DNA of 64,000 nucleotides from Candidatus Bathyarchaeota archaeon (GTDB lineage: Archaea > Thermoproteota > Bathyarchaeia > Bathyarchaeales > DTEX01). Position numbers and translations under genes: made by a program. Below, one piece after another: positions 42,337 to 64,000 of this stretch (positions are counted from its first letter, which is position 1; every line of letters starts with the position of its first letter). Location of the stretch: assembly GCA_963714275.1 (NCBI GenBank), contig CAVQNT010000007.1:1-64000 (forward strand), written 5' to 3'. The notes under the pieces were generated by a model, which was not told where the DNA came from, did no database searches, and saw nothing but the letters and a program-made list of their open reading frames with translations.

Positions 42337-42532
42337 AACAATTCCTCTATCCGTTATGGATAAGTAGGCTTATTTAACCCTTTTTCTGCGAAAAGGAAAA
42401 GAATTCCTTTTTCTGGCTTTATCGAATCATTATTCTTATATATTAGGTTTGGAAAGATTCCAGAAAAGGTAGGCTGCGTAAAGACGCTGCAAGATGAAGT
42501 TTAAATCGATTAAAGAAAAAAAGAAAGGATGA

Positions 42533-42757: not shown

Positions 42758-42829
42758 ATAACTAGTCCAAATAAGAAACAAATAACCTTATTTCAATAAC
42801 AGAAATAAATAAAAAGGTTAATTGGGCAA

Positions 42830-43203: not shown

Positions 43204-43226
43204 TCAAGGATTATCAATACGACTTT

Positions 43227-44006: not shown

Positions 44007-44063
44007 CTTTCTTCGACAACCTTTTAGAACAACTAAAATAAATAAGTCTTCTCGGGAACAAAT

Positions 44064-44648
44064 TTGCCGACAACGTGGTTCGAGAAACTCGGAATCATCC
44101 GCCACTACGACAAAATGGCAAACATCTACGATTCCTTATACCGAGAAGAACAAGAACTAAAGATTAAACAAATACTAAGGCATATGGCTGTCCACGATTC
44201 GGACTTAACTTTGGATGAAGGTTGTGGTACAGGTTTCCTTTTTGAACACATCTACAAACAAGGTGCTCACCTCGTCGGGGTAGATTTATCTAAAGGGCTC
44301 TTGAGGATTGCATTAGCCCACGTTAGGCAAGCTGGAACAAGGAATGTTTCGCTGGTTCGGGCGGATGTTGACCATTTGCCCTTCAAAGAACGTGTGTTTG
44401 ACAAGGTCTTTGCGTTGACTCTTCTCCAAGACTCTTCGGACCTAGACGTGACACTAAAAGAAATAATAAGGACGACAAAAGTGGATTCGATGCTTGCGGT
44501 TACGGGGCTCAAGAAAGTTTTCACGGAAGAGCGGTTCAAACAGGCTTTAACGAAAGAAGGCTTGGAAATCAATATTTTGTTGACGCCCGAACAAGTGAAA
44601 GATTTTATCGCTGTTTGTCGGATGCACGTAGAAGCAAAGATTAAATAA
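44064..44648 (+). CDS. Class I SAM-dependent methyltransferase
   Basis: LDEGCGTG, GVDLS and ADVDHLPF..FDKV motifs. Confidence 0.88.
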   Translation: MPTTWFEKLGIIRHYDKMANIYDSLYREEQELKIKQILRHMAVHDSDLTLDEGCGTGFLFEHIYKQGAHLVGVDLSKGLLRIALAHVRQAGTRNVSLVRADVDHLPFKERVFDKVFALTLLQDSSDLDVTLKEIIRTTKVDSMLAVTGLKKVFTEERFKQALTKEGLEINILLTPEQVKDFIAVCRMHVEAKIK

Positions 44649-45325
44649 TGGCTTGGCGAAGTAGTAACTCTGGTGAAATACAGTGCCGACTCACGGAAGC
44701 CTGTCTAAAGCAGGAAAAGTCCGTTCGCAGACTCCGAAAATAGAGGCTACTCCGAAAACTAGGAAATCGCCAAAAATAAAGTATCGGAGAAATTTCGAAA
44801 AAAGAATCATGCTGCAAAGAAAACTGGGACAAAACTGGGGCGCGCGCGCGCGCTAGCAAAACCCAAAACAAGACGTCATTGCAAAATTTTTAGTTCAAAA
44901 TCAAAAATATTACTATTTAACCAACTAAAAGTATTAAAAAATACACTTTTATGAAAGATACATCACTTGAGGTTTCTTTTTCTTTGCTTTCTGGATTTTT
45001 ATCGCCAAATATAAAGGACGCTCACAAAAACTCTTCTGGTTACCACCTTCATCATTATTAGCGTCTTTCTCTTTTTGGGGCAAAAGTCTCACTATCTTGA
45101 TTTAGATACTGAGGCTATTTATATTTGTTTAATTCATGGAAAGAGAGCGAGGAATCCCGACTTCTAATAATGTTTGCCCAACCCCAAACCATTGCTCATA
45201 AGGCTTTTCTAGGGGCAGTTAATCGAGCGAGAAGTGTAGGTGACAACAAGGGCTGAGTAAGTGAAGGTATTAGAGGAATAAATTTAAGTTTCTTGTTACT
45301 ATTCAAGATTATGGGGAGTAATTAA

Positions 45326-45794
45326 TTGTTTAGGAAAAAGAAAACAAGAAGCCCATTCAAAGCCTCAATGCCTATAGATAATCCAGACATTAAATTAGTG
45401 GAAGCTCGATACAAAGGTAAACCATTTTTCTTAGCAGTGGGAGTATCTAAACAGAGAGAAGTAAAGGGTTCAGGGCAACTTAGTATGAACGAAGGAGTAA
45501 AAGGAGGTTACCAGACCCAGAAGGATTTAGATTGGGAGGTTCACTATAATATGGGTGCTCTGCCTTCAGGCTTCATGTCAGCTCAGAAGACTTAAAGGCT
45601 TAATGGCTGGAACGGTTTCTGTTGTAAGTGGAAGCACAGGCGTCTATTCTGGAAAATTTTCAGAAACAAACTCAGAAAGTCTTAGTAATATTGAAAATAA
45701 ATTTTCCAACTTTAGAGTTGAGGACATCAATAGCCTTCTTGAATATTTAGGTAGTATTAGTTTGGCAATAAAGAAGAAGAAGAAAAAAGATTAA
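45326..45794 (+). CDS. Hypothetical protein, frameshift near 45570
   Basis: Two overlapping ORFs after a GGGAG RBS; the stop codon overlaps repeat copy E. Confidence 0.45.
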
Positions 45795-45817
45795 AATTTA
45801 ATCCCCAAACCCAAACC
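45790..45817 (+). repeat. Dispersed intergenic repeat, copy E
   Basis: ATTAAATTTTAATCCCCAAACCCAAACC; inverted match to copy F. Confidence 0.85.
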
Positions 45818-45909
45818 GACCTAGTCTTATACGCTAGTGAACCAAAAAAAAATTCTTTACCACCACAACCAGGACAAATTAATGTATCAACTATTTCTGA
45901 CATTCTTTT

Positions 45910-46238
45910 CTACCATAATCTCCCTTCTTGCTCAGGAATTATCACACCACCGATTGAAGCGTTTACGTCAATACCTTGTGGAATATTCGGTCCACCCTCT
46001 CCAAAGATTACAGCAAAATCTATGATAATGGCTTTATTTGCTGAATTATGAATTGTTATGTTTTGGATTTTCGTTTCACCAGCGTATGCAGTAATTGAAA
46101 ACGTGGATGGTCTTACAGAGATTGGTTCATTAATTGTGAGTGTTCCTTGAACCTGAAAAATGTCCCATGCTCTTACACCCCAATACTGAACAATGATACA
46201 AGTAGTGCTACCAAGATTACTTTCTTATTTGTTTGCAT
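45910..46238 (-). pseudogene. Small secreted beta-rich protein, frameshifted; absent from the ORF track
   Basis: MQTNKKVILVALLVSLFSIG signal peptide, then (shifted frame) RAWDIFQVQGTLTINEPISVRPSTFSITAYAGETKIQNITIHNS. Confidence 0.55.
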
Positions 46239-46485
46239 TTTTCATTTCTCCTATTTTTTCCGTGTACTCTTTCTTCCCTTCAATTAGGGACAGGCGGTTT
46301 CACGCCTCCAACAGAGTTTACTGCTAATGCTATAAACCTTTATTATAATTGAACGTATAAGGGGTTATGAAAGATAATTAAGAAAGACAAATCTATTAAA
46401 TAATATCAGTTAAATTTTGTGTGTGAGTAGTATGTAGTGTGTAGTGTAGAGAACACATATAACAGAACATAACGTAACGGCATTA

Positions 46486-46512
46486 GGTTTGGGTTTGGGA
46501 TTAAAATTTAAT
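46486..46512 (-). repeat. Dispersed intergenic repeat, copy F (inverted)
   Basis: Minus strand reads ATTAAATTTTAATCCCAAACCCAAACC, differing from E only by one C in a run. Confidence 0.85.
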
Positions 46513-46622
46513 GCACACATAATTTAGGCAAATTAGGCAATTTAGGTGATTTTTTAGGAAGAATCTTAGAATAAACTAAAATTTATATACTGAATGATAT
46601 AATAATATTAAATTGAGGATAA

Positions 46623-47438
46623 TTGCCAAAAGCAGAGAAAAATCTCAAACAAATCTATCATCTGATGGTCGAAAAGTTGAGGCAGTTGAGTAAAGGCGAT
46701 GCTTTTGATAAAACGATGGAAGAAAATAAGAGTTTTAACTACTTAGAAAGGAAGGATAGTTATTTCTTTGAGAAGATGACGCAAGCAGTTTTTGAGAGTG
46801 GTTTGCGTGCTTGGGCATGGGAACCTCACACAAGAGGCATAAAAAAAGCGTTTTGTTATTTCGATGTAAGAAAGGTCGCTGGTTTTGATGATAAGGATGT
46901 AGATAGAATTCTTGTTAGTAATAACATGATTCGTAGGAAACCAAAGATTGAGGCAGTCGTCTATAATGCGGGAAAGATAGTTGAGATAAGCGAGAAGCAT
47001 AATGGTTTTTGGAAATGGATAGACAGCAAAGTGATTAGAAAAGGAGATTTGATCTTTCCAAAGCCTGATTTAATTGAAGAGATCCAGAAAACGTTCAAAT
47101 GGCTGACAGGCATAAACGCTTACTATTTCCTAAAGCTTTGCGGTGTTGATGTTGTTAAGCCAGACTTGAATGTTCGCAGGATATTGTTTAGGCTTGGATT
47201 GATAGAAAGTGACAAAAACAATAAGAAAACGTGGAATCAGATACAAGAGGTTGGAAGAAAGATTTCAAAAGCAACTGGAGAGAGGATAATAAACATTGAT
47301 TATGTCATCTATCTCTATGGTAGTGGTGGAGATCAGTTTTTTGATCACCCAATCTGCACTAAAAAGCCGAAGTGCGAAGAGTGCCCTTTAACAAGTTTTT
47401 GTTATTGGTATAGGAAGGGAAGATTGAAAGTAGGCTAG
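46623..47438 (+). CDS. 3-methyladenine DNA glycosylase (Tag-like) with C-terminal EndoIII-type 4Fe-4S motif
   Basis: FFEKMTQAVFESGL, AF..FD...VA, IRRKPKIEAVVYNA, KPDLNVRR and CTKKPKCEECPLTSFC motifs. Confidence 0.8.
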   Translation: MPKAEKNLKQIYHLMVEKLRQLSKGDAFDKTMEENKSFNYLERKDSYFFEKMTQAVFESGLRAWAWEPHTRGIKKAFCYFDVRKVAGFDDKDVDRILVSNNMIRRKPKIEAVVYNAGKIVEISEKHNGFWKWIDSKVIRKGDLIFPKPDLIEEIQKTFKWLTGINAYYFLKLCGVDVVKPDLNVRRILFRLGLIESDKNNKKTWNQIQEVGRKISKATGERIINIDYVIYLYGSGGDQFFDHPICTKKPKCEECPLTSFCYWYRKGRLKVG

Positions 47439-47500
47439 CCAGTCAAGTAATATAACTCGAATTTAAATCCATTTTATAAAAAATTAGTAGCGAAGCCTTT

Positions 47501-49363
47501 CTAAATTCGTGCTACCACGGTTATTATAGGGGTCTGAGCAGCTTTTTTCAGGCTGGATATAAGCTTGCTAAACACAATGCAGCGATTAATACTGAAAGCA
47601 ATATTGTGATTGCCACGATTGCGTTCTGGGATATAACCAGTTCAGGAATTAAGAATATTAAAACAAATGCCAACCCAATCGGTAGCCCAAACAGCGCACC
47701 AGTGAAGACAAGCAGGAACGTCTGAAATAATAGAATCTTTAATATGGTTCCGGGTTTTGTTCCTAACGCACGCATGATGCCCAAGTCTCTCTGCTGACCT
47801 GACACTGAAAGCATAAGGAAACCCATAAGCGAAGTGACAGCGCTTATGAAAGACAAAAGCGAAAGAGAAAGAAGCAGAGACCAAATTTGGCTTATGAAGG
47901 TTATCTGTCTATTTAAAGACTGATCTAAATCAACCATAATCAAGCCTGAGTTAGAAATTACAGCTTCTATTCCTTGAAGTATGCTTGAACGGTTTGAATG
48001 TTCAACCTGCACTAGAAGAATATTATAACCTGAGTGATGAACGATGGAGGACAATCCCTCATAGGGCATGTAGACTACCATCCCGTTATTAAGAGGGTCC
48101 AAACAAACCCCAACAGTATGAAACTCGTGATCGAAGGCTTTGAAGTTTTTGTTGAAAAGGGTCTTCAAAAAATGTTGCAGTGAAAGGGGTCTCCCAATAA
48201 CACGTTGTTCAAGTCTTTATCTTGGATTTTCTCACCGAGAAGCAACCAATCATTTACAAGATCCCCAACATGAACACCCATGATAATAGCGTCACCTTGT
48301 CTTTGGTCTCCAATTACTATGTATTGGCCGGGATTATTAGGATCTGGGGCAATATATTGAGCCTCTTTAACAGAGGTCTCTAAAATCAACCGGGGCGGCT
48401 TCTGATGACTCCGCTGATTTCTTGAATCGCAGAGATAACAGAATCCGGAATCGCATAACTATCATTAAGGTAGTTAAAAGACTCAGATTGGCTTGGCTGA
48501 AGGAACCTATCAAGTAATTGTTCATAATGTTCAGCCATTTCAGTCTTAGTCACAAGAACCACATCTGTACCAACCGCCCTCTGAACGTAGCTAGCGTGGT
48601 TTCTTCAGCAACTATTCCGCCGACGACGATTACAGTCATCAAAGCAATGACTACACCAAGACAGGTAATTGATTGAATAGTCATAGACCATCTTCTACGT
48701 AGAGTCCTAGAAGCAATGCGTACAGTAAGACTCTTGCCAAACAAGAAAGGCAATTTAAAAGTTGACTGTTGAGCAGCCATCACATCTGAAACTTGAGACA
48801 ACGCCTCAGCAGGTTTAATACGAGCTACCCGTCCAGTCAGCCGCAAGCCTAGAATAAAAGAAAATCCAGCGAACATAATAAAAATCAGCAAAATCATCTG
48901 TACATTGAGAGGACCAACTAAGAGATGAAAACCTAAAAGGTTCATCACGCCTGTCGAGACAAAACTTAAGGCAATCCCAACAAAAGTCCCGATCAGGCAG
49001 CCTGCAAGGACGAGAATCAAAAACTCCGATGCGAAATGCTGAAAAACAGCATCAGTTAGGCATCCGACGGCTTTCATGATGCCAATGTCACGAGTCCGAT
49101 TCTGAAGTAGCCACAGACATTAGGAAATAAACAACAAGAACCCCAGTAACACAGTCAAGTATGACCACAAGCAGGATGAACCTGGAAAAAATTACTGAAA
49201 ATCCAACTGTTAACCCACTCGTTGAAAAACCTGCAACCTCAACGCCGAGGTTTTCACCGAAAAGAACAAGTGAAATAGTCACCGAAACGCAGACAGCAAG
49301 GCTAACGATTGTTAATGTTGTCTGAAACTTTCTTCTCGCCAACTCTTTAAGTGGAAACCCCAA
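47501..49363 (-). CDS. ABC transporter permease (FtsX/MacB-like), several frameshifts
   Basis: Two R(D)xGIMKA(V/L)G-type FtsX repeats and TM helices across four ORF pieces. Confidence 0.8.
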
Positions 49364-49372
49364 CCATCCCGC

Positions 49373-50052
49373 CTACTCCTCGGAAACAATTTTTCCGTCT
49401 GACATGACAAGCGTCCGGTCCGCTAACTTCAGGACCCTTTCATCATGCGTGACAACAACCACTGTCTTCTTCTCTTTCAATCCCCTCAAAATGTCAATAA
49501 CCTTCAAGCCTGTGTCCAAATCAAGGTTTCCCGTAGGCTCATCCGCTAACAAAATAAGCGGATCATTAGCAAGCGCCCGAGCGAAAGCTGCCCGTTGCTG
49601 TTCGCCTCCGCTGAGTGGGACGGAAAATGGTCAACTCTACCAGTTAAGCCCACAAGTTTCAGCAGTTCATCTGATTTTTGCTCAATCTGGCTGTCGTCCC
49701 ACCCGGTGAAATGCATGGGAAACGCGAGATTCTCCTTTGCAGTAAGGGTCGAAATTAGGTTGTACGACTGAAAAACGTATCCGATGTTGGTGCACCGGAA
49801 AGTCGCAAGAAAATACTCATCATACTTAACCAGATCATGCCCGAGGACAGAGATCTCGCCTGATGTTAGTTTGTCTAAACCGCCAATAATGTTTAGAAGA
49901 GTCGTTTTTCCCGCCCCAGATGGACCTTGGACAACAATGAATTCGCGAGTCAAAATGGTCAGGTCGACGTCTTTGAGCGCCTCAACTACGGTTCCGCCAA
50001 TATTGTACTCTTTCCGCATGGATAAGGCAACAACAACCTTTTCATTTTCCAT
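49373..50052 (-). CDS. ABC transporter ATP-binding protein (LolD-like), frameshift near 49620
   Basis: GPSGAGKTT, GYVFQSYNL, LSGGEQQR, LADEPTGNLD and VVTHD motifs. Confidence 0.9.
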
Positions 50053-50151
50053 AGTCAGTAACGCTTCGAAGCGATTTAACTAGTTATCTAGCGCGCGCGT
50101 AGATCTCTTTGCAATGACTTCTATTAATTCGAATTCGTCTGAGTTAGTGAG

Positions 50152-50814
50152 TTACCTAAGATTAACAAGAGAAATGCAACGACTCAATAAAAATATATTC
50201 TTCCCCGTTACAAAGTATTCCACAGTCATTCGTTCTCTCACGGTATCAACTACTCCCATTTTCTTGAAACGACTCATCTGCCAACTTAAAAGTCTGAGAA
50301 GATATGCCAAGTTCAGAAGTTAACGATTTATGCGAAATTGATTGGTTCTTGGATAAAACTAAAAGAATCCTTCCCAGCGTTTTGTGTCTAAGGAGAGAAA
50401 TCAATCTCATTTCAGACTCTTTAAACCTTCCTGACTGGAAAAATCTCTTGTATCTATTGTCATCATAGACCGAAATCAATTCAGATTTTGTGAGAAGTTT
50501 AAGATGATATTGCACAACGCCGACAGAAAAATCTCAGTTTTCCGCATATGTCCCTGAAGCAGGTCCCAGGATTATCTTCAATGAAGGTGTAGATTTCTAA
50601 CCTCGTTGACTGGTTAAGTAATGACTGATTTTGATAGAAACTTGTGCGGGCTATATCCTGTGTGAAAAAAGTGTATTGGCTGAATACTCTCTGTGAGTGC
50701 AATGGGTGTAGGAAGCGAATGTTTCGAGTCGCTCTGAGAGCAAACCATTTCAGTGAGAAATAGAAATAGGACTAGGGTGCCAAGGGACACTGACAAAATT
50801 TGTCTTCGCTTCAA
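50152..50814 (-). CDS. Double winged-helix regulator with N-terminal hydrophobic segment, frameshifted
   Basis: TRLEIYTFIEDNPG, VQYHLKLL, RYKRFF and ELGISSQT pieces. Confidence 0.7.
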
Positions 50815-50870
50815 ATCACTTCTGCCCCTATCGAAAAATCTAATTAGATTTCCCAGTATTTATCATCTTT

Positions 50871-50903
50871 TGTAAACGATTGTACTAGTGTAAACGATTG
50901 TAC
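50871..50903. promoter_or_regulatory. 15-bp direct repeat, candidate operator between divergent genes
   Basis: TGTAAACGATTGTAC at 50871-50885 and 50889-50903, separated by TAG. Confidence 0.5.
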
Positions 50904-50965
50904 CATAAAATTTATTCTTCTTCCCCATTAACATGATTTAAAGGTATATTTAACAAGGGTTAAAT

Positions 50966-51895
50966 ATGGAAAGTCATTTCCGTCGTCCTATTTTTGAAGG
51001 ATGGAAAAAAGGGAAACTGCTTGTTCCCTTCATCGTTGTTGCCCTTTCTTGGTCCTTATCGTTAATCGTACGGTTTGTTTTTGGTCTTGATGGGATAGGG
51101 CTTTCTGTCGGCGAAGGAATCGATGAGATTGCCAAGGTATGTTTGGCGATTGGGTTAATCTGGCTGTTTCTAAGAAACGTTCCGCCCTCTCCTTACAAAA
51201 AGGGATTCTCCAAGAGGTCCGCCTTAATTGATCTGTCAATTGCAGGAATAGACTGTGCGATCACGGTTCTCTATGGTTTTTTCTTTTATTCTTCTCTTGA
51301 TTATCATTATTATAGTCTTGGTTTTTTCCTCCTTGGAATGGAATATGCGATCATATTATTGTTCACAATCAGACATTACGGAAAGAAAGAGTTAAAGCCC
51401 TTTTTGAAGGACTTAGGACTGCGCACGCCATCAGTAAGAATCATAGTGTGCTGGGTTGCAACAATTGTCATCTTTTTTTCCCCTTATCTACTTAAGTGCA
51501 GGTGCAAACTTTCAGGCGTTTCTTAATGATTATCATAACACTCTCTTCTGGATGCCGAATATTCTGTATATGATCTTTGCCTGGCTTGGTGCTGAAGAGT
51601 TTTTTTCAGAGTCTATTTGCAGACAAGACTTGAGAAGATAATGCCAGTTGGATTGGCAATCATAATTCAATCATTTCTATTCAGTATAATCCATATTCCT
51701 GGCAACGCAGCAGTTTTGGGTTGGGGATGGCGTGTTGTTCCCCATTTGGCGAACACGTTACTCCTAACTAATGGCTTGATTGGAGGATACTTGTGGCATA
51801 GAACGAAGAGTCTGCCAATTCTAATCCTTTACCATTGGGCAATATATCCTCTCATGCCACTCATCTTCTTTCCATCCTATTATTTGCCTAGTTAA
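50966..51895 (+). CDS. CPBP/CAAX (Abi-family) intramembrane metalloprotease, frameshifted
   Basis: AEEFFFR..LQ.RL, FSIIH and ILYH motifs with multiple TM helices. Confidence 0.8.
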
Positions 51896-51968
51896 CATAA
51901 TTATTTGAATCCTTGACATTTATTGATGACAATAGTAGCTAGATAGTGAGCTGGCTTTTCAATTTAAC

Positions 51969-52265
51969 TCATAAAACTTCTCTAAATTCTAACCAGGATT
52001 TTATTACTCTAACTGGGAATTCTCCATTTAAAACATACATGGTTCCTTCTTTTTTTATAAAATCACTTTCTTTCAATAGGTTTAGGACAGCGTAGTATTG
52101 ATTTAGTGAGCAGTTGAGTCTGGAGAAGGTCTGTTCCCTAACCTCTTTACTTGTTTCTAAGCCTCCATCTTTAATCTCATTTGCCAACGTCCTTCCTATG
52201 CGTATGTAGTCTGAGGACTTTAACGCCATTTCTATAATTTTCGGTAATTCCCTCATATTCACCAC
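51969..52265 (-). CDS. Small hypothetical protein, wHTH-like
   Basis: QYYAVLNLLKESDFIKKEG..YVL wing pattern; GAGGTG RBS. Confidence 0.55.
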   Translation of the reverse strand: MVNMRELPKIIEMALKSSDYIRIGRTLANEIKDGGLETSKEVREQTFSRLNCSLNQYYAVLNLLKESDFIKKEGTMYVLNGEFPVRVIKSWLEFREVL

Positions 52266-52558
52266 CTCAATTTTGGTTATAGCAAAAATGCATCATCTAT
52301 ACCCTAATTTTCCATTTTTCATTTTTGACTTAGGAACAAAATGAGGACTATTCCGTCAAAGAAATTATATCAAACGACCCTTTAGATTCCTGAATAACAG
52401 CATTTGAGTTTATACCAAAATAGTCGCTTTTGTCGTTTTTGGTTCTACCTTTTAGCCTCCGTATAGTAGTTTACGATTTTAATGGTTGTATAGGACAGTA
52501 AAAGAGTCTAAAAGAGCGGTTGAGTAAATGATTAATTCATTTGTCATGTGGTCACCAG

Positions 52559-52869
52559 TTACTTTTGTCTCTTAGGGTGGGGAATTTCTGGTTCAGGCTT
52601 TGCTTCTTTTTCGCTTTCTGCTTGTGAACTGCTCATTTGCTCTGCCACTGGTGCTACTTCACCGAAATAGTCTTCCTTAGCCTCAACTATATCAGAAGGC
52701 ATCTCTTCTTTAGAAAGTTTAACATTTTCTGCTTCACCTTCCGCCTCTAATCTCTTTGCCTTTCTTTGTTCTGCCTGTTTTTCATTTTTTCCTGATATTC
52801 TTGCAATTCCTTAGGTGGACGTTGTTCAGTCTGTCTCTGTTTCAAAACTGACTTTCCTAACTTACCCAT
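52559..52869 (-). CDS. About 100-aa charged, low-complexity protein, one frameshift; absent from the ORF track
   Basis: GGAGGTG RBS; MGKLGKSVLKQRQTEQRPPKELQEYQEK then QAEQRKAKRLEAEGEAE...EAKPEPEIPHPKRQK. Confidence 0.5.
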
Positions 52870-52938
52870 AACATTCACCTCCTGCAACCTTATTCCCACT
52901 ACTCTGTTTCACATACATCACCTCAAAAGATTGGTTAG

Positions 52939-53214
52939 TTACTGTAGGGCTTGGCTCAAAACTCTTCTGGTTGCTATGGCAACGTCTTCTGCTGTAATTG
53001 TCTCCCGTTCCTTAAAGCTTGGAGCATGAGGAGAACTTTGAGCAATGAGAATAGACTCTTTTGCCACCTTCATGGATGCTTCGTTTAAAGTCCTAATCAT
53101 TTCCTCAACACCTTCTCTGCTTACTCTCTTCGCTCCTGCTTTAGTTAAAAGTCTTCGGACTGCCAAAAATGGGAAACCTTCTCTCCTATGCTTGTCTACT
53201 CTTCTAACTTCCAA
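52939..53214 (-). CDS. Variant archaeal histone encoded in the mobile element
   Basis: FPFLAVRRLLTKAGAKRVS...RETITAEDV aligns with the host histone at 42121. Confidence 0.85.
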   Translation of the reverse strand: MEVRRVDKHRREGFPFLAVRRLLTKAGAKRVSREGVEEMIRTLNEASMKVAKESILIAQSSPHAPSFKERETITAEDVAIATRRVLSQALQ

Positions 53215-54060
53215 TCAAATCCCTCGCTTCAATCTCACTAATTCTCGCACCGAAATTGTCAAACACTCTTTTTACATGAGTGATATGTTCGCCTTGTCCT
53301 TTGACACGAACAACCCCGTTCTTCAATAGCAATTGTATTGCTCTTTCAAAATCAAATCCATATTTCTTTATTACATTCCTAAAATTGTAACTGCTACTCA
53401 ACTCCTCCAACGAAATCCACTTGAACTCTGGAAGCGCTTTTAAAAATGCTTTCAAAGAGTAATACTCGTACCAAACCCTCAGTTCTTTGAGCGTCTTTTT
53501 GACTCGTCCTCTTGTCTTGCTGTCCGTCTCAAGTCGTAATGAGTGACACGTTTATTGAACGCCTCATGTTTACTTATCTGCACAACAGGAAAATCAATCT
53601 TCTTGAGTTTGTCGAATGTAAACCATAAACTCCCAACACTAATGCCTAATGCTTCGCTTAATTCAGTAAAAGCGCTATACCCATGTTCCTCAAGGTATAA
53701 AACAACCCGAGCCACAAAAGGATTTCTGGCGACATCCTTAATCACATGACTGTTAGAAAATGGAATTATGTCCTTTAGTTCTTTCGCAGGTTTAATGTCT
53801 TGAACTCGCAACTTAACGTCTTCAACTATTACTTTCTCTTCTGCCTTAGTTTCTTCTATCATTGCACCTAAATTATCTTCAGGAAGGTCAAAATCCGCCA
53901 AGTCATCTTGAGTTTCATTAGGCATTAATATTTGGTTCTCCTGTCCTTCTGCAACATCTACTACCTTATTCGTTGAAGGCTTATCGTTAATATTCTCCTT
54001 AACTTGCTTTGTTCTACTCTGCAAACCGAACTCAAACTTCAGACCTTTCACCTTTCCCAC
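53204..54060 (-). CDS. Winged-helix DNA-binding protein (~285 aa), probably one gene frameshifted near 53490
   Basis: Acidic N-terminus, HTH FTELSEALGISVGSL; the second ORF continues ELRVWYEYYSLKAF with another wHTH-like segment. Confidence 0.6.
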
Positions 54061-54945
54061 TCATTTACTAAAACTATAAAATATTATATTGATTGTAAGA
54101 TTGTCCTTACTTATTGTTAGTGCCTTCATCTGCTCTCAGTCCTCAAATCCACCTACCTATATTATATTATTAGAGTGTGCGAAATTACGATAGTTTTGGT
54201 ATATACCAATTATAAATTAATGGTGAGGAAGTATATAAATTTTAGGTAGCATTTGGTAGCATTGGCAACATAGTGATATTGAAAGCATAAGCCATCTTAA
54301 GGTTAAAATCAACACGTCTTAATCTACCATATTATTAATATTATTAAAACTACCACCACTGTTTCTCCGAGACAACAAAAATAGTGTAGCTGTTCCTCAG
54401 ACGGCATCAAAACTGTTTTACTTGCTCTAACTGCTATTTGCTTTAAATGCCAAAGTGCTATCTGTAAAATTAAGAATATAAATTTAATATATGAAAAAAA
54501 ACGCCACATTAAGGATTTTGTGAGATTATGTCTATAATGATTATATATTTATGCAAGAGACAGCAAGACATACCCTTAGTCAAAACCTGACTAAATTAAC
54601 TAAAAAAAATAAATGGAAATTTCGAGTAAAACGTAACAAACATTAATAATCTTCACACAAATGGTCTTTTAATTTTCTCTTTCTTATAGCAGAACTGATT
54701 TATTTTTTTCATTTATTTATTTTTTTAGTTAATTTATTTTTTTTATTTGAGATTTGAAAGAGGTTTATTATTAAAAATTTATGCAGAATACCTTAGTCAG
54801 ATCTTAAATAAATTCAATAAAAAAAATAAAAAAAATAAAGGGAGATTTTAGGATTTAAGATTAATTTAATCACTTAGATCTGTATGATTTTCCCTTTCTA
54901 AAGTGCTTAACAGAGTTCGTAGACAATCCAGATTTCCTTTAAAGT

Positions 54946-56842
54946 CTATGAAAAGGGCGTTTTGTTCTCCTCGCCTTGTAACAGAAAGCCAAAGTGTTGT
55001 AAGCTTTGATTGAGTCTTCTTTGCCCGCTTGGAGTTTCTGGAATATTTTGTAGAACGCTAGAGAAGTAAGTTATAGGCTTTAGATGTTCGTTAAGTCCAT
55101 TGTAAGTCGTTGTTAATTCTGAAAGAGGCATGATATTTTTGGCATCATTGGATTATTGTTGGTGAAAGCACATGCTCCTAGAACAATGGCTTTCCACTTT
55201 CCGCTAGGCAAATTCTTATACTGATTCAAAAGCCACAATTCATGAGGAACACTGCTAATAGTGGTTAACATTTGCGTAATGGAGTTTATGATTAAATTGC
55301 AGATATGTGTAACATCTTCCTCCGCATCCTGAAGAATTTTGTTGATGTCATAGTCTCCTAAGTAAACTTCTTTCAGATTGTCTAATATAGCATGCTTCAA
55401 TGCTTTTCCTCTTATGTGCCTGAAAGCACCCTTGAAACTTAAACAATATTCTCTGATGTCAGGGAAAGAGGCAGTAGCAGAGTGGAGTCGATGTAAGATT
55501 TGATTACATCGGAAAAAGTTTCAGGAGGAATGTCCTTATCTAACCACGTTTGCACTTGTCTATTAGGAAAGATTGTACTTTGTACTCTAGTATTTACAAC
55601 TGATATTATATGGGTGTAGACAAGCTCATTTTTGTCTATAGTTTCATCGTTCAATGGCTCTATGTCTGTGCCTTGACTGTCTTTTTCTTTCTTAGCAATG
55701 TCTAGTTTTAGTAAGATTAGAAGTAGTCCTAATCTTGAAGATACGGGTCCTGATACAATTGCATGCCGTGATATATATTCAGCAAAGTATTGAGCAAGTT
55801 GGTTACGGTCAACAGCGACAGGATTATCTGCATCAGAAATTTCTGTCTGAGGAAGGTTAAGCAAGCAAGTTACAGAAGCAGTTGTCCTTGCTACCACTGG
55901 TCCTTTGCCCTTCCCTGCTCTTTGAACTCCTTTCTCTTTTATCTCTAATAGATTTCTTATAGCTTCTAGTATATAGTCTTGTACACTGTCTAACATCGAG
56001 AGTTCCGTATTGTCCGTCAAAATTCCTATATTTTCAGCATCAGCAGTCGCAAACCCGACTAATCCTGCTCTTGAAGCATCACTGAACCACACTCCACCGC
56101 TAATTCTTGCTATTTTCATCGCAAAAGTAGTTTTTCCCAATTTTGTAGGAGAAAGCAAGTCTGTATGGTCTTGATACTTCATTATTATCTCAGGAGTTTT
56201 TTCGTCCTCATAGGGATTGTCGTGAAAATTTATCACTTGAGATTCTAAGGCATAAATCATGTCAGCATTTTTGTACCACCCTTCGTAACAAAAGTCATGT
56301 CTGATTCTTTCAAAGTCCCAGCTCTGTATATTGTTGATTTCTTGGGGAGTCAATGGTTCAACAATTTTGAAGAGAAAAGGTGTGTTTAAGTGTTTATTAA
56401 GTATGTTTGTCCATATTTCATAAGGTTCAAGTGAGCGAGACTGAAACTTTCCATTTTCATCTGGTTCCTTTACCGTTGTTACTATGTTGCGTTCCTTAGT
56501 TATCTCAAAGATTACTTTTGATTCAGGTTCGGGAGTAGGAAATGCCAATGCATTTTCGGGTCCAAGAAAAAGTTCGTCTCGTGTAAGTGGCATTATTCTA
56601 TGCCAGTCACCAGTTAGCCTATACGTAGACTTCGTTAATATATAGTTTAAGGGAGTTCCAACGTCACATCTATATTTGTAAATGCTGTACTGATAGACAT
56701 AATTGTTAGAGTTCCAAGGTTTGTGGTTGTAGTATAGAGTGAAGTCTCTCAAGTTTACTTTTTTCTTTGCTGTTATACCAGAATAGTCAGGAGGCAGGTC
56801 TTGCAGACCAGGTCGTTCAGGAGGCAAACTAAGTCCTGACAC
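54946..56842 (-). CDS. Divergent MCM-like AAA+ helicase, frameshifts near 55450 and 55130
   Basis: SPTKLGKTT (Walker A), ASRAGLVG, SMLDS (Walker B position), RAGKG..ARTTASVTCLLN and VSSRLGL (Arg finger) in MCM order. GTG at 56842 follows AGGAGG. Confidence 0.7.
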
Positions 56843-57698
56843 TTTTTTCAGCCTCCTTTTGAGAGAGTACGTCAGGTTTTTGTCTACTATCCACAACATG
56901 CTTGAGCAGGGTTTTTGATAGATAATGTGTACATTCTTGTTTCTTTGGATGAGTTTCTTTAAATCCAGAAAATCCCTATATTTGCCTTTTAGTACTAATG
57001 CAAAGAATATTGGTTCGTCTAGGAAATTTTCTATCTCTTTATCCAATGTTATCACTCTCTGATTTATTTAATTCTGAAATCTCACAGGGACACCTACTTG
57101 CGTAGGCGTTAACGTGGCGTTAAGCCACAATTTTCAGATTATTAATTTTTTGGTTTCTGACTCTTCACCTTTTAAAGGTGGATTTTAAATCCCTCTACAT
57201 ATGGGGCATTCAGAGGTCTTTAATCACAATTTAAATTTGTGACCGTGATTTCTATTTCCTTATTTATATAATAACAGTGATCCTATATTTAAATTTTATT
57301 TTTTTTTACTAAAAGTTGTGAATATAACAAAAAATTTATATATCTTAACATCATATAAAACTCAGCTAGGATGTGGTAATCTCTTGAGACAAAGACCAAA
57401 AAGGAAGCGTAAGACAAGGCTTGAAAAACTAGCAGAAAAATACCCAGCCAAGAAATGGGGAAACTTGGAGAAGTTCGTTCATCCTGAGGAATAGAAGCGC
57501 ACGCGCTAATTCAAATTGGAACCCGCATAAAATGGAGAAGTATGTGCTATCGCAGAATTTTTAGATGAGAATTTGAAAGGAATCAATCTCAATGGATTGA
57601 AGTTAGACAGCAATGTCCTCGAGTTCAGTTTTAGAAGGCATTTCAAAGAGAAAGAAGATGATTCTCTTAATCTGGAATGATAAATCCTAAATCTTCAA

Positions 57699-58974
57699 TC
57701 AATCGTTCTGCCTTATTTGCTTCTTTTTTGTAGACTTTGGTAGTTTGAACTTTCCTCTTTCTTCAGGTGTCATTTCTCTTGTGCCTTCAAGTATCTTCTT
57801 TAGACCTTCTTCAGTATGTAACCTCACGAATCTTTCGAAGTCTGCTCTTAAATCTGCATAATTCTTCTTTTGCTCTTCTAGGTCCGTCTTAAGGGTTGTA
57901 ATCTGTTCTGTGACTTCAGAGGGAATAACTGCCTTTTCAATTACTTTCTCAATTAACGGAGTTAGGTAGTTTTCCACATTAGCATATATCTGCCTCAAAT
58001 TATCTTTCTGAACCTGTCCTTGAAAATAAGTTTCCTCCATCCCTTCCAATGTATGTCCCATCATCCAGTAGACAATGTTTTTGTTGGCGTTATGTCCTTG
58101 CAATTGACTATCAAAATACTTTCTAAAACAGTGTACTCTAACCCTGCCATGTTCCCCGTCTAATCTGAGGCTTGTCTTTTTCGCTAAATCTTTCATCATA
58201 CTATTCCATTGCTGTTCAGATAACTTATTCCCTTCTTGACCTGTAAAGATATATTGCTCTCTTAACCCATCATCTTTTACTCTAGCTCTCAGATCAGCTT
58301 TTAACAACTCCACGCCATATTTGCCGAGAAACGTAAAACGCCATCCTATCTCCCTGCCCTCTGTCTTTTCTGGAAGGTAGTCAATAGCCATAGGAACTTT
58401 TAAGGCATCTAACTTCCCTAAATCAAACTCCTTTAAATCCTTCACCTTCAGCTTTTGAACGTCACCTATCCTCATGCCTGTTTGTGCTAACCAAACAATT
58501 CTTCAGCTTCTCTTTCATATCACCTGCGTCAACTATCGCTTTATAATCACTTTCAGATAACTCGACATCATGAAATTTCCTTTGTTTCGACTTTCTATAC
58601 TTTGTATCTTCTTTGCAAAGTGGGTATCCCCAATAGCTATAAAATGACTTGACTATCAGTCTTGAAGTTGCAATAGTTTTGGGTGCAAGTCTTTTCTCCT
58701 CTTCTATTTGCTGAAACACACGCTGAAATAACCTTTCTGATTCTTTCTTTCTTTGAGCAAAATCCATTAATAATTCGCCGTCAATCTGCTTATACTCAGA
58801 CATTCTATCTTCAATCAATTGTCTTGGAGCCTTACCAGCATATTTACAAAACTGTTTTATCTCTCTGAGATACAATGGTCTGCTTTCATTAGACTTCCCT
58901 AGTAGCCATTGAATAACTGCATCTTGGTCTGCTTTTTCTGTAAATGCCTCTTTTACCTTTTCTTCATGACTCAT
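57699..58974 (-). CDS. Tyrosine recombinase/integrase, frameshift near 58500
   Basis: TGMRIGD, EKT, HCFRKYF, MMGH and ETY catalytic residues; C-terminal coiled coil. Confidence 0.9.
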
Positions 58975-59232
58975 TTACTTCTTTTCCTCAAAAATATAAT
59001 CTTAGAGGTCTTATTTAAATTTTTTTATTATAAAAGATGGGAAAATTACTATTTTCATTCACCTGAAAGCCAAAAATCTAGATAAGTCCATGACGGTTGC
59101 GGTATGTCACACAAATCAGATAGCCTCCCGTAAACAGCGTTTATTGTTCAAAATTGAAACTCGGTTGTTGAACAAATCATACTAAGTAGAAACACTTGAA
59201 TCCACATATAAAAAGAAAAAAGTGTTGGGACT

Positions 59233-60432
59233 CTAAGCGGGAATTGTCACCCACTTGCTCTTTTCTGACGATTCCTCGATTGCGGACAGTATTTCTTGGC
59301 ATTTCAGCCCGTCGTAGAAGGTTGCACCCAGCGGAGCCACTGACTTGTCGTTCACTATGCAATCTACCAAGTGGTGGATTTCGTGCGCGAAAGTATGTTC
59401 CCAGCCGATAATGTGCCCCTGCGGCCACCAGTGCTCCATGAACGGGTGAACGCTTTCGGTGACCAGAATGTTGCGGAAGCCCATTCTGTCATCCTGGTCC
59501 TTCTTTGAGTAAACTTCCAGTTCGTTCAGCCGTTCAAGGTTGAAGCTGATTGACCCTTCTGTCCCGTGAACCTCAACCCTCTGATAGTTCTTTCTTCCTG
59601 CACAGAAGCGGGAACTTTCAAGGCTACCGACCGCGTTGTTCCTGAACTTGACCATGGCGATGAACATGTCGTCCACGTCAACCTTGCCCTTCTTTTCTGG
59701 ATTATCCTGCAACTGGCGTTCCTTGATGAAGGTCTCAGTTAATCCGCAAATTGAGGCGAAGTCTCCCACGAGAAACCTAGACAAGTCCACGATGTGTGCT
59801 CCTAGGTCGCCTAATGCTCCTGATCCAGCGACGCTTTTCCTCAGCCTCCAAACCAAAGGAAACGAGGGATCCATAATCCACTCCTGAAGGTAAACGGCTC
59901 TGAACTGAAGGACTTTGCCGATGTAGCCTTCGTCAATGAGGTTCCTCGCCAGCCTCAACGCGGGAACAAAACGGTAATTAAAAGCTGTCATGTGCTTTAC
60001 GCCCGCCTTCTCAGCAGCCTCATACATCGCCCTCGCTTCCCTGAGGGTTCCAGCAAGTGGCTTCTCGCAAATCACGTTCTTTCCAGCTTCGACTGCCGCT
60101 ATGCAGGGTTCAGAATGCAAGTTGTTTGGCAAACAGTTGTCGACAAGCTGAATCCTCTTGTCTTTGACGACATCCTTCCAGTTAGTGTAGTAGGTTTCAA
60201 ACCCATATCTTTTTGCCAGCTTCACTAAAGCCTCCTCCGTTCTTCCGCAGAGAGCTATCAAGCGCGGTCTCGCAGGAGGCGGATAGAAGAACACTGGCAT
60301 CTTTTTGTAACCGTTTGTATGAGCTTTGCCCATGAAGGCGTAGCCTAACACGCCGACGCTGATGTCTTTAACTTCTTTAGGTTCCTTCGAAACCTTGCCC
60401 ATCGTCACAAATCCGACTTCTTTCTTCGACAC
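59233..60432 (-). CDS. Gfo/Idh/MocA family oxidoreductase
   Basis: GYAFMGKAH, CEKPLA, GALGDLGAH and GHIIGWEHTF motifs. Confidence 0.92.
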   Translation of the reverse strand: MSKKEVGFVTMGKVSKEPKEVKDISVGVLGYAFMGKAHTNGYKKMPVFFYPPPARPRLIALCGRTEEALVKLAKRYGFETYYTNWKDVVKDKRIQLVDNCLPNNLHSEPCIAAVEAGKNVICEKPLAGTLREARAMYEAAEKAGVKHMTAFNYRFVPALRLARNLIDEGYIGKVLQFRAVYLQEWIMDPSFPLVWRLRKSVAGSGALGDLGAHIVDLSRFLVGDFASICGLTETFIKERQLQDNPEKKGKVDVDDMFIAMVKFRNNAVGSLESSRFCAGRKNYQRVEVHGTEGSISFNLERLNELEVYSKKDQDDRMGFRNILVTESVHPFMEHWWPQGHIIGWEHTFAHEIHHLVDCIVNDKSVAPLGATFYDGLKCQEILSAIEESSEKSKWVTIPA

Positions 60433-60435
60433 TTT

Positions 60436-61406
60436 TCACCACCACACCTGCTTAAGGGGAGCCTTGATTATTAATGACTTTAGGAAAGCTATGCATTTTT
60501 CGCACCCGTCTTCGCGGCTCATCACGGGGTCTTCGTGCTCGTAACTCAGGACAAAATCATAGTGGACCTCAAGCAGCGCGGTTATTACCCTTTTCCATTC
60601 AACATCGCCCCAGCCTACGACCCTGAACCTGAACCCTCTGCCCTGCCTCATCCACCCGCCCGTTGGTATAACGCCTGACGTTGCGACGTTCTCCTTCACG
60701 ATCTCTGCATCCTTGGCATGCGCATGATAGATTCTATCCCCGAACTTCTTGATGAAAACAACAGGGTCAATTCCCTGCCAGACGAAGTGACTCGGGTCGA
60801 AGTTAACCCCGAACTCTTTTCTACCATCAACCGCCTTTATCGCCTGCTCCGTCGTTTCAACGTTGTACGCCTGTTCCTGCGGGTGAACCTCGTGGGCAAA
60901 CTTAATCCCATGCGCAGCAAACACGTCGAAAATGGGGTTCCAACGCTCAGCGAACATCTTGAAACCTTCCTCGTAAATCTTCTCGTAGGCGGGTGGAAAA
61001 ATGTACCATGCTCCCCAATACGGTGCTCCGATGAACCCGTTCACGACGCTAACATCAAGCGCAGCTGCAGTTCAGCAGTTTTCTTCATGCGTTCCGTGCC
61101 ATATTTTACTTTTTCTTCCGGTGTGCCTTTGAAAAAGTCGTCTGTTGAAGCGCCGTGAGGCCCGAGCACAAGTTGCCCTTCAAGGTGGTTGCTGATTCCA
61201 GAAATTGAAAGCCCATATTTTTCGACTGTTTTTTTAAGTTTCGTGGCACCGCCGCTTAGGACGTTGTCGAGGTCGAGGTGAGTGCTTCCCTTCCATGCTG
61301 CGAGTTCAACGCTTTCGTAGCCGAGCTTTGAAACATATTCTAACACTTTTTCCAGTTTAAGTTCATTGTACAGAACGGTGAAGATACCTATCTTCAAACG
61401 AGTCAA
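60436..61406 (-). CDS. Sugar phosphate isomerase/epimerase (IolE/xylose-isomerase-like TIM barrel), frameshift near 61060
   Basis: HEVHP, NFDPSH, HAHAKD and SYEHED motifs. Confidence 0.88.
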
Positions 61407-61532
61407 TCTCCTATATGTTTTTTGTGAAGTCTAGTATCACCATATTGTCTTAAATAATTTACACTTACCAATGAATTACAGAAAAATTGTTATATGAAGA
61501 AATAAGCTCTGTTTGGTCAAAAAACGGTCTTG

Positions 61533-61724
61533 TCACTCAACTTTCTTGGCAACAGAATATTTGCGGATCTTCAGGTCGTTAATTATTTCATTGCTCTCGA
61601 AAAGTCTCCTCAAAGAGCTGAAAACGGCTTTTGGTTTTTTGTCCAATTTCCCAGCAATCTCGACGAGAGTAAGAGGCCCAGATTCGCTTAGCAGCTTAAG
61701 AACCTGTTCGTCCAGCTTGTTCAA
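61533..61724 (-). CDS. Small winged-helix DNA-binding protein
   Basis: VLKLLSESGPLTLVEIAGKL..VFSSLRRL pattern. Confidence 0.65.
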   Translation of the reverse strand: MNKLDEQVLKLLSESGPLTLVEIAGKLDKKPKAVFSSLRRLFESNEIINDLKIRKYSVAKKVE

Positions 61725-62005
61725 CCTCGAAGCACCTCAACATTTTCCAATATTTTCCAGCCTTCAGTATTTATCATCTTCGCTGAAAACCAAAAATCCT
61801 CTTATTGAATAAACTTTTAAAGACATTTTATTTTCTTGGTCATGTTCACAAAAAATCATGTATTATTGACCTTCATAATGGATAATACTAACCAAAATTG
61901 TGAATAGGTAGAACCGTTGATACGCAATTAAGCTTATAAAACGGATTTCGCAAAGTATCTGAAGACATAATACATTTAAGCGCGGAACGTATTGAAGGCG
62001 GTATC

Positions 62006-64000
62006 ATGTATGAGCTGTGGCTTGTCGCGCCATTATCTGCTCTAGTCTCAATCGTAGTTGGACTCTACTTCTACAATTATGTTAACAAACAGGACCCAGG
62101 AACCGAAAAAATGCAGGAAATCGCCTCTGCAATTAGGGAAGGGGCAAGAACATTTCTAAACAGGGAATACAAAACATTGGCAGTGTTCGTGTCCATAGTC
62201 GCTGTTTTCATGTTCATTTTTCTTCCTTCACCCATATGGTCAAATCCTGACCCCTTAAAAAATATAGCAATAGTTACAGCGTATGTTTTCGGATCAGTCT
62301 GTTCAGCAACAGCTGGCTTCCTCGGAATGAACATATCAACAAAAGCGAACACAAGGGCAGCCAGCGCAGCGAGAGAAGGACTGAACAAAGCCTTCACAAT
62401 AGGTTTCCGCGGTGGAGCAGTCATGGGAATGGCAGTCGTAGGTCTCGGCTTGCTCGGAGTAAGCGTCGTGTATTGGGCAACAGGCGACCCCGAAGTCATA
62501 TTGGGATTCAGCTTCGGCGCAAGTTCCCTTGCCCTTTTCGCTAAGGCTGGCGGTGGCATATACACAAAGACTGCTGACATAAGCGCAGACTTGGTTGGAA
62601 AGGTGGAGCTGAACATTCCTGAGGACGACCCGAGAAACCCAGCTGTAATTGCTGACAACGTTGGCGACAATGTGGGCGATGTTGCAGGCATGGGAGCAGA
62701 CCTTTTCGACTCATACGTGGCAAGTATCGTCGCAGTCATGATTCTTGGACAAGCCTTGAACCTGTTGCCGGGCTCCCAAGGAATATACCTTCAAATCCCC
62801 CTAGTGTTCGCTGGCCAAGGCATCCTGTCAGCTGATTGTAGGAGCTTTGACAGTAAGGGTAGGAAGCGGGGGCAACCCAGGCAAAGCTTTGAACACAGGA
62901 ACATACGTTACATGCATAATTTTTGTGGGCTTAACATACGTGACATCGGTCTTCATCCAGTATAACCTCAGAATTTGGGGAGCCTCAACAGTCGGTCTAA
63001 TTGCGGGAGTCATCATAGGCGTAACCTCGGACTACTTTACCTCAGAGGACAAGGCGCCAGTCCAAAAAACAGCGGAAGCAGCACAAACAGGAGCAGCCAT
63101 AAACATCATAACAGGATTCTCCTACGGTCTACGCAGCGTTCTACCACCACTAGTGGGAATTGCAGGCGCAGCAGTCGTAGCATACAGACTATGTGAGCCA
63201 TTAGGCACCCAATATGCACTCTACGGTATATCTATGGCAGCATTGGGAATGCTGTCAATCGTAGGCTTAGTGGTTTCAAACGACGCCTATGGTCCCATAG
63301 TTGACAACTCCAAGGGAATAGCAGAGCAGGGAGGACTCGGTGAAGAAGTCATAAACGTAACAGACGAGCTGGACGCAGCAGGAAACACTGCAAAGGCAAT
63401 AACGAAAGGATTCGCTATAGGTGCAGCGGGATTAACCGTGATTGCCCTTTTCAGCTGCATTCCAAGAAATAATCAGAAACGAAACAGGCATAACAGTCAG
63501 CTTCGACCTGATGAACCCACTCGTTCTGTTAGGCGCCTTTATAGGAACTGCCATACCCGCTGTTTTTTCAGCGATGCTTATGCTTGGAGTTGGAAGAAAC
63601 GCTTTCAGAATGATTGAGGAAATCAGAAGGCAATTTAGGGAAATTCCGGGACTCAGAGAAGGAAAAGAAGGAGTAAAACCTGAGTATAGCCGGTGCGTTG
63701 ACATCGCAACCAAAGGCGCATTACAAGAGCTTCTACCAGCAAGCGTCATGGCCATCGCTGCAACATTGATTGTTGGGTTTGTCGGCGGAGTCGAAGCGTT
63801 AGGTGGATACCTCGCTGGCAGCATTTTCTCAGGACTACTATTCGCGTTGCTTATGGCTAACGCTGGTGGCTTATGGGACAACGCCAAGAAACTGATAGAG
63901 TCCGGAGCGTATGGCGGAAAAGGGTCAGAAGCTCACAAAGCAGCAGTCATAGGCGACACTGTTGGCGACCCATTCAAGGATACTGCTGGTCCATCGCTTA
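62006..64000 (+). CDS. hppA: Membrane-bound ion-translocating pyrophosphatase, probably K+-independent; two frameshifts, runs off the window
   Basis: GGIYTKTADISADLVGKVE, EDDPRN, DNVGDNVGD and GDTVGDPFKD motifs. GNTAKA has Lys at the K+-dependence determinant. Confidence 0.92.

Follow-up and report, generated by a model that had tools for sequence, protein, structure and literature searches.

A probable capsid-less integrated element carrying a winged-helix and histone operon and an MCM-like ATPase in a Bathyarchaeota genome

The 64,000-nucleotide stretch analysed here, positions 1 to 64,000 of contig CAVQNT010000007.1 of a Candidatus Bathyarchaeota archaeon (GenBank assembly GCA_963714275.1; hereafter the window), probably carries a capsid-less integrated mobile element of the cryptic integrated element or integrative plasmid class. 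Delimited by alignment with the corresponding site of a same-genus genome, G002, and by a direct repeat, the element spans window positions 44909-59054 (14,136 bp); it is absent from the same intergenic site in G002, is bounded by the repeat and has a tyrosine integrase at its right end. Additionally, its core operon, which consists of a double winged helix-turn-helix (wHTH) gene, a variant histone gene and three small open reading frames (ORFs), recurs together with a glycosylase-like gene in the same order on related metagenomic contigs with different cargo. The features on which this reading depends are the following.

44909-44918: left copy of the 10-nucleotide direct repeat ATTACTATTT, candidate attL core, placed by alignment with the uninterrupted site in G002
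51969-52899, minus strand: small ORFs of the operon
51969-52265, minus strand: orf98, the last operon gene and the most conserved protein (79-83% identity, tblastn against L038-L043)
52559-52899, minus strand: charged small protein in two frames (orf50 and orf47), a single ORF of 102-113 aa in relatives
52939-53214, minus strand: variant archaeal histone of 91 aa (PF00808, NCBIfam archaea_histone, five relatives)
53204-54060, minus strand: double winged-helix protein, one gene of 271-283 aa in relatives, with a frame break near 53480-53510
54061-54945: AT-rich non-coding gap, candidate replication origin and operon promoter
54946-57055, minus strand: MCM-like AAA+ ATPase of about 700 aa, putative replicative helicase, in three frames (57055-55439, about 55502-55140 and 55131-54946)
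57699-58974, minus strand: tyrosine integrase of about 428 aa, in two frames (58974-58462 and 58475-57699; PF00589, phrog_216 and alignment with the L041 relative)
59045-59054: right copy of the direct repeat ATTACTATTT, candidate attR core, placed by the same alignment

The boundaries come from the comparison with G002, a genome 89% complete, whose junction was compared by blastn and by a three-way alignment. The methyltransferase and oxidoreductase genes that flank the element lie 14.6 kb apart in the window and 1.6 kb apart in G002, there on a single 7.35-kb contig that matches both the left flank (42149-44841) and the right flank (59165-62513) at 88% identity, with a further 38-nucleotide match to window 59048-59084 directly after the left flank. 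In the three-way alignment, G002 tracks the left flank of the window to about 44902 and then resumes as the right flank from about 59045. Because the two flanks are joined in G002, the approximately 14.1 kb between them is absent from that genome, and because they are joined at this very point, the left-hand cargo is part of the element. Therefore, the extent of 51930..59090 given in the original prediction covers the right half only, while its suggestion that the CPBP protease, the ABC exporter and the glycosylase further left may belong to the element is borne out. The empty site that it had proposed to look for is found in so far as the methyltransferase and oxidoreductase flanks are joined, although G002 holds 1.27 kb of its own there, and the vertical, syntenic conservation that would have told against an inserted element was not seen: none of the 25 protein pieces of the island matches six related loci (L013-L015 and L017-L019) from genomes G001, G002, G005 and G006, and the wHTH-histone module occurs in one of 401 class-level genomes, the window's own. 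In G001, G005 and G006 the flanking genes lie on separate contigs, so that these genomes are uninformative for the site.

Base composition also sets this interval apart, with a G+C content of 0.26-0.45 inside the element (0.26 at 54500-54999 and 0.31-0.45 over the rest of 44500-59000) against 0.43-0.53 outside. Vertical inheritance with a deletion in G002 was considered and rejected on the grounds of this low G+C content, the integrase at the junction and the occurrence of the relatives on unrelated contigs with other cargo. Insertion into a tRNA gene was rejected likewise, as the only tRNA found sits far off at position 18944; no Rfam RNA family was detected in 43500-60000, and neither end of the element has a tRNA or Rfam family. 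Two further observations were made at the site: the 1.27-kb insert of G002 (contig C88, L017 3294-4562) carries two small, apparently membrane-protein ORFs and replaces window 59085-59164, and a run of about 16 alternating G and C nucleotides at 44838-44853, just left of the junction, is missing from the aligned G002 position.

The integrase is recognised by its 258-aa piece, which matches PF00589 (E 1.5e-10, 41.6 bits against a cut-off of 27.1) and phrog_216 (1.6e-10), while the 170-aa piece has solely a sub-threshold SAM-like match in Pfam. When aligned with the intact 429-aa relative in L041, it shows the full catalytic set of R, H-x-x-R, H and Y (TGMRIGD, HCFRK, GH and ETY), the roles of these residues (R, H-x-x-R, H/W, Y) being those which we take to hold throughout the tyrosine recombinase family. 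The gene is not one uninterrupted frame, having a break at 58462-58475 just before the catalytic arginine, which may be an assembly error. As a side observation, the genome to which the window belongs (G000, 2.64 Mb) has twenty PF00589 matches, 14 of them above cut-off, and the 40 relatives of it that were searched all have genome sizes of 1.1-2.2 Mb; G000 seems to be unusually rich in integrated elements.

The wHTH-histone operon forms the conserved core of the element family. Its wHTH gene is split into a 193-aa ORF (53479-54060), with an HTH_24 match below the Pfam cut-off, and an 83-aa ORF (53204-53455), which form one gene in relatives, and the start of the histone gene overlaps this upstream gene by 11 nucleotides. 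The histone matches PF00808 with 23.9 bits (cut-off 21.4) and the NCBIfam model archaea_histone (NF043032) with E 9.9e-11 and 41.9 bits, below the cut-off of 50, and differs in two respects, a basic extension of 13 aa at the N-terminus and 7 aa inserted ahead of the R-x-T motif of loop 2. Archaeal nucleosomal histones are marked by a loop-1 R-V and a loop-2 R-x-T with an aspartate seven residues past the arginine, according to the portion of the source available to us (PMC13260811). Both are present here (KRVS and RETITAED) and conserved in relatives, with glutamate in place of the canonical R-K-T lysine. All five full-length relatives (89-92 aa, 65-79% identity) share the N-terminal extension (consensus EVRRVDKYR), the 7-aa insertion, the R-V and the R-x-T-x-x-x-x-D; a search of genome contigs with the histone alignment gave one weak, probably unrelated match in an Acidobacteriaceae metagenome-assembled genome (41% over 44 residues). 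The genome has two histone-fold genes, the element's and a chromosomal one at 42145-42327, which are 38% identical. The chromosomal gene sits 2.6 kb left of the element, so that both histone genes lie within 11 kb.

In all eight metagenomic loci with the module, as far as the contigs reach, the order wHTH, C-terminal wHTH part, histone, orf50, orf47 and orf98 is kept, and copies of the glycosylase-like gene that are 76-89% identical come next in four of the five long loci, which amount to about three distinct elements, as L039 and L040, and likewise L041 and L042, give identical figures. An integrase 52-61% identical to that of the window sits 6.3 kb upstream of the module in L041 and L042; no terminal repeats were found on the metagenomic module contigs. 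The wHTH family forms nine clusters in a large protein collection, and orf98 has no family match in Pfam, PHROGs or NCBIfam. The variable slots are occupied in L041 by an AAA+/wHTH protein, a TIR protein and a type IIG restriction enzyme (2e-186), in L039 by a ParB-like protein, DISARM genes (DrmA 1e-215 and DrmMII 1e-105) and a TIR protein, and in L038 by a ParB-like protein and SIR2 and DpdA-like genes. Judged by gene content, the histone-module element family thus appears to be a vehicle for defence systems, which it carries in two variable slots.

The ATPase gene opens with a 538-aa piece (55439-57055), the first 77% of the gene, followed by fragment ORFs at 55400-55113 and 55131-54946, all on the minus strand, and tblastn with the relative P0001, which is encoded on an 11.3-kb contig, covers it at 56797-55487, 55502-55140 and 55131-54964. 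The 538-aa piece has no match in Pfam (E 0.1 or better), PHROGs, NCBIfam or a PDB sequence search, and a word-index protein search with it returned nothing; an exhaustive protein search then found a family of 65 relatives at E 1e-3 or better, including 24 at 1e-10 and 11 at 1e-30, the closest being a 658-aa protein of 46% identity. The shared domain is matched by no Pfam model in any of the 55 relatives scanned (the other ten being short fragments, one 7571-aa protein and a few others). Primase domains above cut-off occur in three of the 55, namely P0029 with a fused DnaG zinc ribbon, DnaG_N and Toprim, P0056 with fused Toprim and PriCT-1, and P0063 with a fused Prim-Pol and CHC2 zinc ribbon. 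Sub-threshold matches were found to MCM (PF00493) in one relative, at 20.4 bits against 23.3, to BrxL_ATPase in one and to Gins51_C in one.

Structure comparison places this ATPase close to the MCM helicases. With a model built from a 41-sequence alignment (pLDDT 81.5, confident over residues 80-525; the single-sequence model, at pLDDT 30.8, was unusable), all 40 Foldseek matches listed against the PDB are MCM chains (E 2e-8 to 7e-7, at low TM-scores of 0.23-0.36), and among the 48,161 chains searched with VIA-align ranks 1 to 11 are all MCM2-7, MCM8/9 or archaeal MCM (Z 12.1-14.7, 234-323 residues aligned), with BrxL next at Z 12.1; the other AAA+ proteins score no more than 10.6, and Cch reaches 8.6. 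In several of the MCM alignments the matched stretch extends from residue 99-100 to 524-525 (301-323 residues, Z 12.1-14.3) and so takes in both tiers of the fold, the N-terminal OB-type and the AAA+ domain, as judged from whole-model alignments. An hhalign comparison of the family with ten host-type MCMs aligned 231 columns (E 2.3e-4, probability 45%), in which the order of motifs matches MCM: Walker A, an AGL(T/V) stretch, Walker B, a KG hairpin (pre-sensor-1 lysine), the sensor-1 N-P and the arginine finger S-R, these residues being presumably what their MCM names imply. Within the family K308, D356, G383, N400 and R441 are invariant; no invariant or nearly invariant cysteine was found in the 11-sequence alignment, and the zinc-binding cysteines of MCM are thus not seen. 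Identity to solved MCMs is 9-14%. Together, the modelled fold and the motif order support the ATPase as an MCM-type ring ATPase that lies outside the MCM family as modelled by Pfam; the host encodes one canonical MCM elsewhere in its genome.

A profile search found the ATPase family in three of 401 phylum-level genomes (G000, G016 and G021). After the G016 gene come, in this order, an 82-aa ORF, a PriS/PriL-like primase gene, a 141-aa ORF, a tyrosine integrase gene and host genes. The G021 gene has a wHTH gene on one side and, on the other, a tyrosine integrase gene that overlaps it. From these neighbourhoods and the fused domains, the ATPase family appears to be linked to small integrative elements and primases, and this tie favours a role in replication over one in defence. 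The two small integrative elements with the same ATPase family occupy L036 1-5100 (G016) and L035 9100-13400 (G021), and the primase gene of G016 is a fused PriS/PriL-like one.

Between the ATPase gene and the operon lies the gap at 54061-54945, which measures 885 nucleotides, has 26.8% G+C and is free of ORFs. In it, a unit of 40-50 nucleotides occurs as a direct repeat at 54574 and 54791, and inverted A/T-rich copies fall between the two; the best 40-nucleotide direct repeat has 33 of 40 matches, a value reached by none of 200 first-order Markov simulations. The 9-nucleotide start of the repeat occurs in none of the related loci, which also lack the ATPase, and the G021 element has no comparable AT-rich gap. 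We infer that the gap is a candidate replication origin because it lies beside the helicase gene and is AT-rich.

Based on these findings, we propose how the element may work. The integrase would recombine the short core, so that the element could be excised and re-inserted as a circle. The MCM-like AAA+ protein could form a ring helicase, loaded at the adjacent AT-rich, repeat-bearing gap, and may recruit the host replisome, as neither a primase nor a polymerase is encoded by this element. The wHTH protein and the histone variant, which are translationally coupled, would bind the element DNA and regulate, compact or mark it, and the ABC exporter, the regulator and the CPBP protease would be accessory cargo in the slot that defence systems occupy in related elements. 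More tentatively, and with considerable doubt, the wHTH protein might target the tailed, loop-extended histone to element DNA, or the histone might cap host histone filaments, as a selfish chromatin that controls silencing, copy number or protection from the kinds of defence system found on related elements. Most of the gene content behind this proposal had been recognised from the DNA in the original prediction, namely the terminal tyrosine integrase, the module whose ORFs all run on the minus strand, the non-coding DNA of about 880 bp, the wHTH protein, the histone and small ORFs, and the absence of a recognisable capsid, terminase or conjugation gene. Its MCM-like ATPase agrees in fold and motif order but not in membership of the Pfam MCM family, and of its two suggestions, an integrative plasmid or a satellite, the former fits better, as no evidence for a satellite was found.

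Several points weigh against this reading of the element. The repeat ATTACTATTT is short, and 165 of 5000 shuffles of the two 60-nucleotide junction windows match its length; its weight comes from its placement exactly at both junctions. The G002 site is not strictly empty, as a 1.27-kb stretch of its own with two small ORFs takes the place of 80 nucleotides in the window, and given this difference the intergenic spacer at the insertion site appears to vary within the genus. Neither a circular form nor an excision junction was seen, the sole sequencing run found (a DNA run with 7% of the sampled words) having yielded five contigs of 151-217 nucleotides at identities of at least 99% and with no joints, which is too little to show one. 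The ATPase has no sequence match to MCM above any curated threshold, and a PDB profile search gave nothing significant. It is also present in none of the eight histone-module loci, where other proteins fill its slot, so that the pairing of helicase and histone is not a family trait. Finally, at least 12 frame breaks run through the element, and this copy may be partly dead.

These breaks lead to the alternative that the element is the decaying remnant of a once-mobile island, fixed, immobile and non-replicating, whose genes for the integrase, the helicase, the wHTH protein and the cargo have turned into pseudogenes. They affect the integrase, the ATPase (two breaks), wHTH, orf50/47, CPBP, ABC, FtsX and both left-end genes, and only 23% of the island's bases lie in open frames of at least 250 aa. 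Moreover, the stop in the wHTH gene is shared by P0091, a near-identical protein encoded on a 13.2-kb contig in another assembly. However, the flanking chromosomal genes are broken at a similar rate, with four 1-nucleotide coding indels relative to G002 in about 6 kb (42966, 43436, 43868 and 61071), and a 134-aa protein, NucS and a TIM-barrel gene (42830-44105 and 60436-61406) are split in the window and intact in G002; a frame break seems to occur about every 1-2 kb throughout the assembly. Long frames are scarce outside the island as well, covering 44% of the window's bases there against 64-73% in the relatives' loci, and P0019, a fragment from the other assembly, reads through the first ATPase break in frame, a pattern that points to an error-prone assembly. 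Because conserved chromosomal genes are equally often broken, assembly error is the likelier cause of most of the breaks, with some real decay possible, and we regard a wholly decayed element as unlikely. In the other assembly, P0072, P0091, P0004, P0012 and P0019 are 89-96% identical, differently frame-broken fragments of the element's proteins, and P0072 shares the 13.2-kb contig with P0091.

It is distinctly improbable that the element is instead a provirus or a virus satellite, packaged by unrecognisably divergent capsid proteins or by a helper virus. Several of the conserved small proteins have no known function, as such a reading would allow, and among viral proteins the ATPase comes closest in fold to uncharacterised ones of crenarchaeal viruses (E 1e-7 to 1e-5). 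However, Pfam and PHROGs scans found no capsid, portal, terminase or other virion family and no conjugation family in the ORFs of the element, and no virion family in the scanned ORFs of L035, L036, L038, L039 and L041. The conserved core proteins are soluble DNA-binding types; the integrase, the ATPase and the ATPase alignment have no match in the viral contig collection, and the ATPase and its alignment have none among the genome contigs of the locus searches either. Least probable of all is that the ATPase serves defence or maintenance, in the manner of BrxL or MoxR, and is seated in the defence slot, rather than being a replicative helicase. In favour of this, BrxL at Z 12.1 is level with the weakest MCM rows, one relative has the sub-threshold BrxL_ATPase match and the same slot holds DISARM and TIR genes in L039 and L041. 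However, BrxL is outranked or equalled by eleven MCM-type chains, the protein lacks a Lon-like C-terminal domain, no further BREX gene accompanies it, a primase is fused in three of the 55 relatives and neighbours the gene in G016, and PADLOC has no match for the protein.

The integrated mobile element that we favour joins parts with separate precedents. Krupovic et al. in 2010 reportedly described the recruitment of MCM helicases by archaeal plasmids and viruses, and Cch (PDB 5dgk) is what we take to be the MCM-like helicase of staphylococcal SCCmec; to our knowledge, the MCMs described so far on mobile genetic elements are recognisable members of the MCM family. The ATPase shares with these plasmid and virus MCMs and with Cch an MCM-type AAA+ ring-helicase fold on an integrative element and a presumed recruitment of the host replisome, whereas it differs from the plasmid and virus MCMs in its missing PF00493 match, its low identity to solved MCMs and its lack of conserved zinc-finger cysteines, and from Cch in that Cch gives the weaker fold match.

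As for the element class, the literature is given here from the portions of each paper available to us. Cryptic integrated elements were defined for Thaumarchaeota as mostly below 20 kb, with a tyrosine integrase, short direct repeats and no virus or conjugation hallmark, and as carrying a variable replication protein (MCM, Cch-like, Orc1 or primpol) with restriction-modification or other cargo (PMC6563490). The element agrees with this description in having an integrase, flanking repeats and absence from the relative's site, with no virus or conjugation hallmark matched, and resembles those elements in size, replication protein and cargo as well. However, no Pfam model recognises the family of its helicase, and the core of its family is a wHTH-histone operon, while neither 'histone' nor 'chromatin' occurs in the available text of that paper (PMC6563490).

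Histone-fold genes on prokaryotic mobile elements are known, as haloarchaeal plasmids carry face-to-face histones and phage histones are also mentioned, at least in the accessible portion of the survey (PMC11390915), and archaeal-like histones were reported in Caudoviricetes genomes, again as far as the accessible text goes (PMC13681535). Those are of other types or belong to tailed viruses, in contrast to the present histone, which is a nucleosomal-type singlet with R-V and R-x-T-x-x-x-x-D, extended and loop-inserted, translationally coupled to a double wHTH protein and set in a capsid-less integrative element. The histone of Bathyarchaeota archaeon B23, which according to the part of the source consulted has an N-terminal tail and is predicted to form less stable hypernucleosomes (PMC6136690), is likewise a Bathyarchaeota histone with an N-terminal tail or extension, a likeness of description. 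The word 'histone' is absent from the text at hand of a Bathyarchaeia virus survey (PMC10848311) and of an Asgard element study (PMC11529989), no integrated-element terms were matched in that of two histone surveys (PMC11390915, PMC13260811), and no element with a conserved histone-variant core was found in the literature searched, which was covered as main texts by term, supplements aside. Two parts stand out, the unnamed MCM-like family and the element-borne histone operon; the class of integrated element is a known one.

With its junctions mapped, the element offers a clean example of mobile DNA in an uncultured archaeal lineage of which little is known, and a conserved, N-terminally extended histone variant coupled to a DNA-binding partner appears as the hallmark core of a defence-carrying integrative element family. 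The question of what use histone variants are to archaeal selfish DNA is thereby made directly testable with two small proteins; if the selfish-chromatin reading is true, tailed archaeal histone variants may first have spread as mobile-element genes, and the published tailed Bathyarchaeota histone may itself be element-borne. The unnamed MCM-like AAA+ family, with its 65 relatives, some fused to DnaG-type or Prim-Pol primases, widens the range of MCM-type helicases and could inform the diversification of this helicase class.

The remaining features of the element are mostly its left-hand cargo.

45326-46240: small genes, an ORF on the plus strand (45326-45794) and, on the minus strand, a small protein of secreted type (about 45837-46240), each in two frames
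46623-47438, plus strand: DNA glycosylase-like protein with a Tag-like domain and an EndoIII-type iron-sulfur motif (PF03352 2.4e-14, PF10576)
47548-50052, minus strand: cargo, MacB/LolCDE-type ABC exporter, FtsX permease pieces and ATPase with several frame breaks (PF02687, PF00005, NCBIfam ABC families)
50246-50814, minus strand: cargo, small wHTH regulator and upstream fragments (HTH_24 6.7e-5)
50966-51895, plus strand: cargo, CPBP (Rce1-like) intramembrane protease in two frames (PF02517 9.3e-8 on the second piece)
57056-57698: spacer separating the integrase gene from the ATPase gene, in which no convincing ORF or repeat was seen

The small genes at the left end have no significant Pfam match, the ABC exporter is absent from the related elements examined, and PADLOC gave no convincing match for the exporter, the regulator or the CPBP protease. 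Between the divergent genes of the cargo wHTH regulator and the CPBP protease, at 50871-50903, lies an exact 15-nucleotide tandem repeat with a spacing of 18 nucleotides, which may be an operator.

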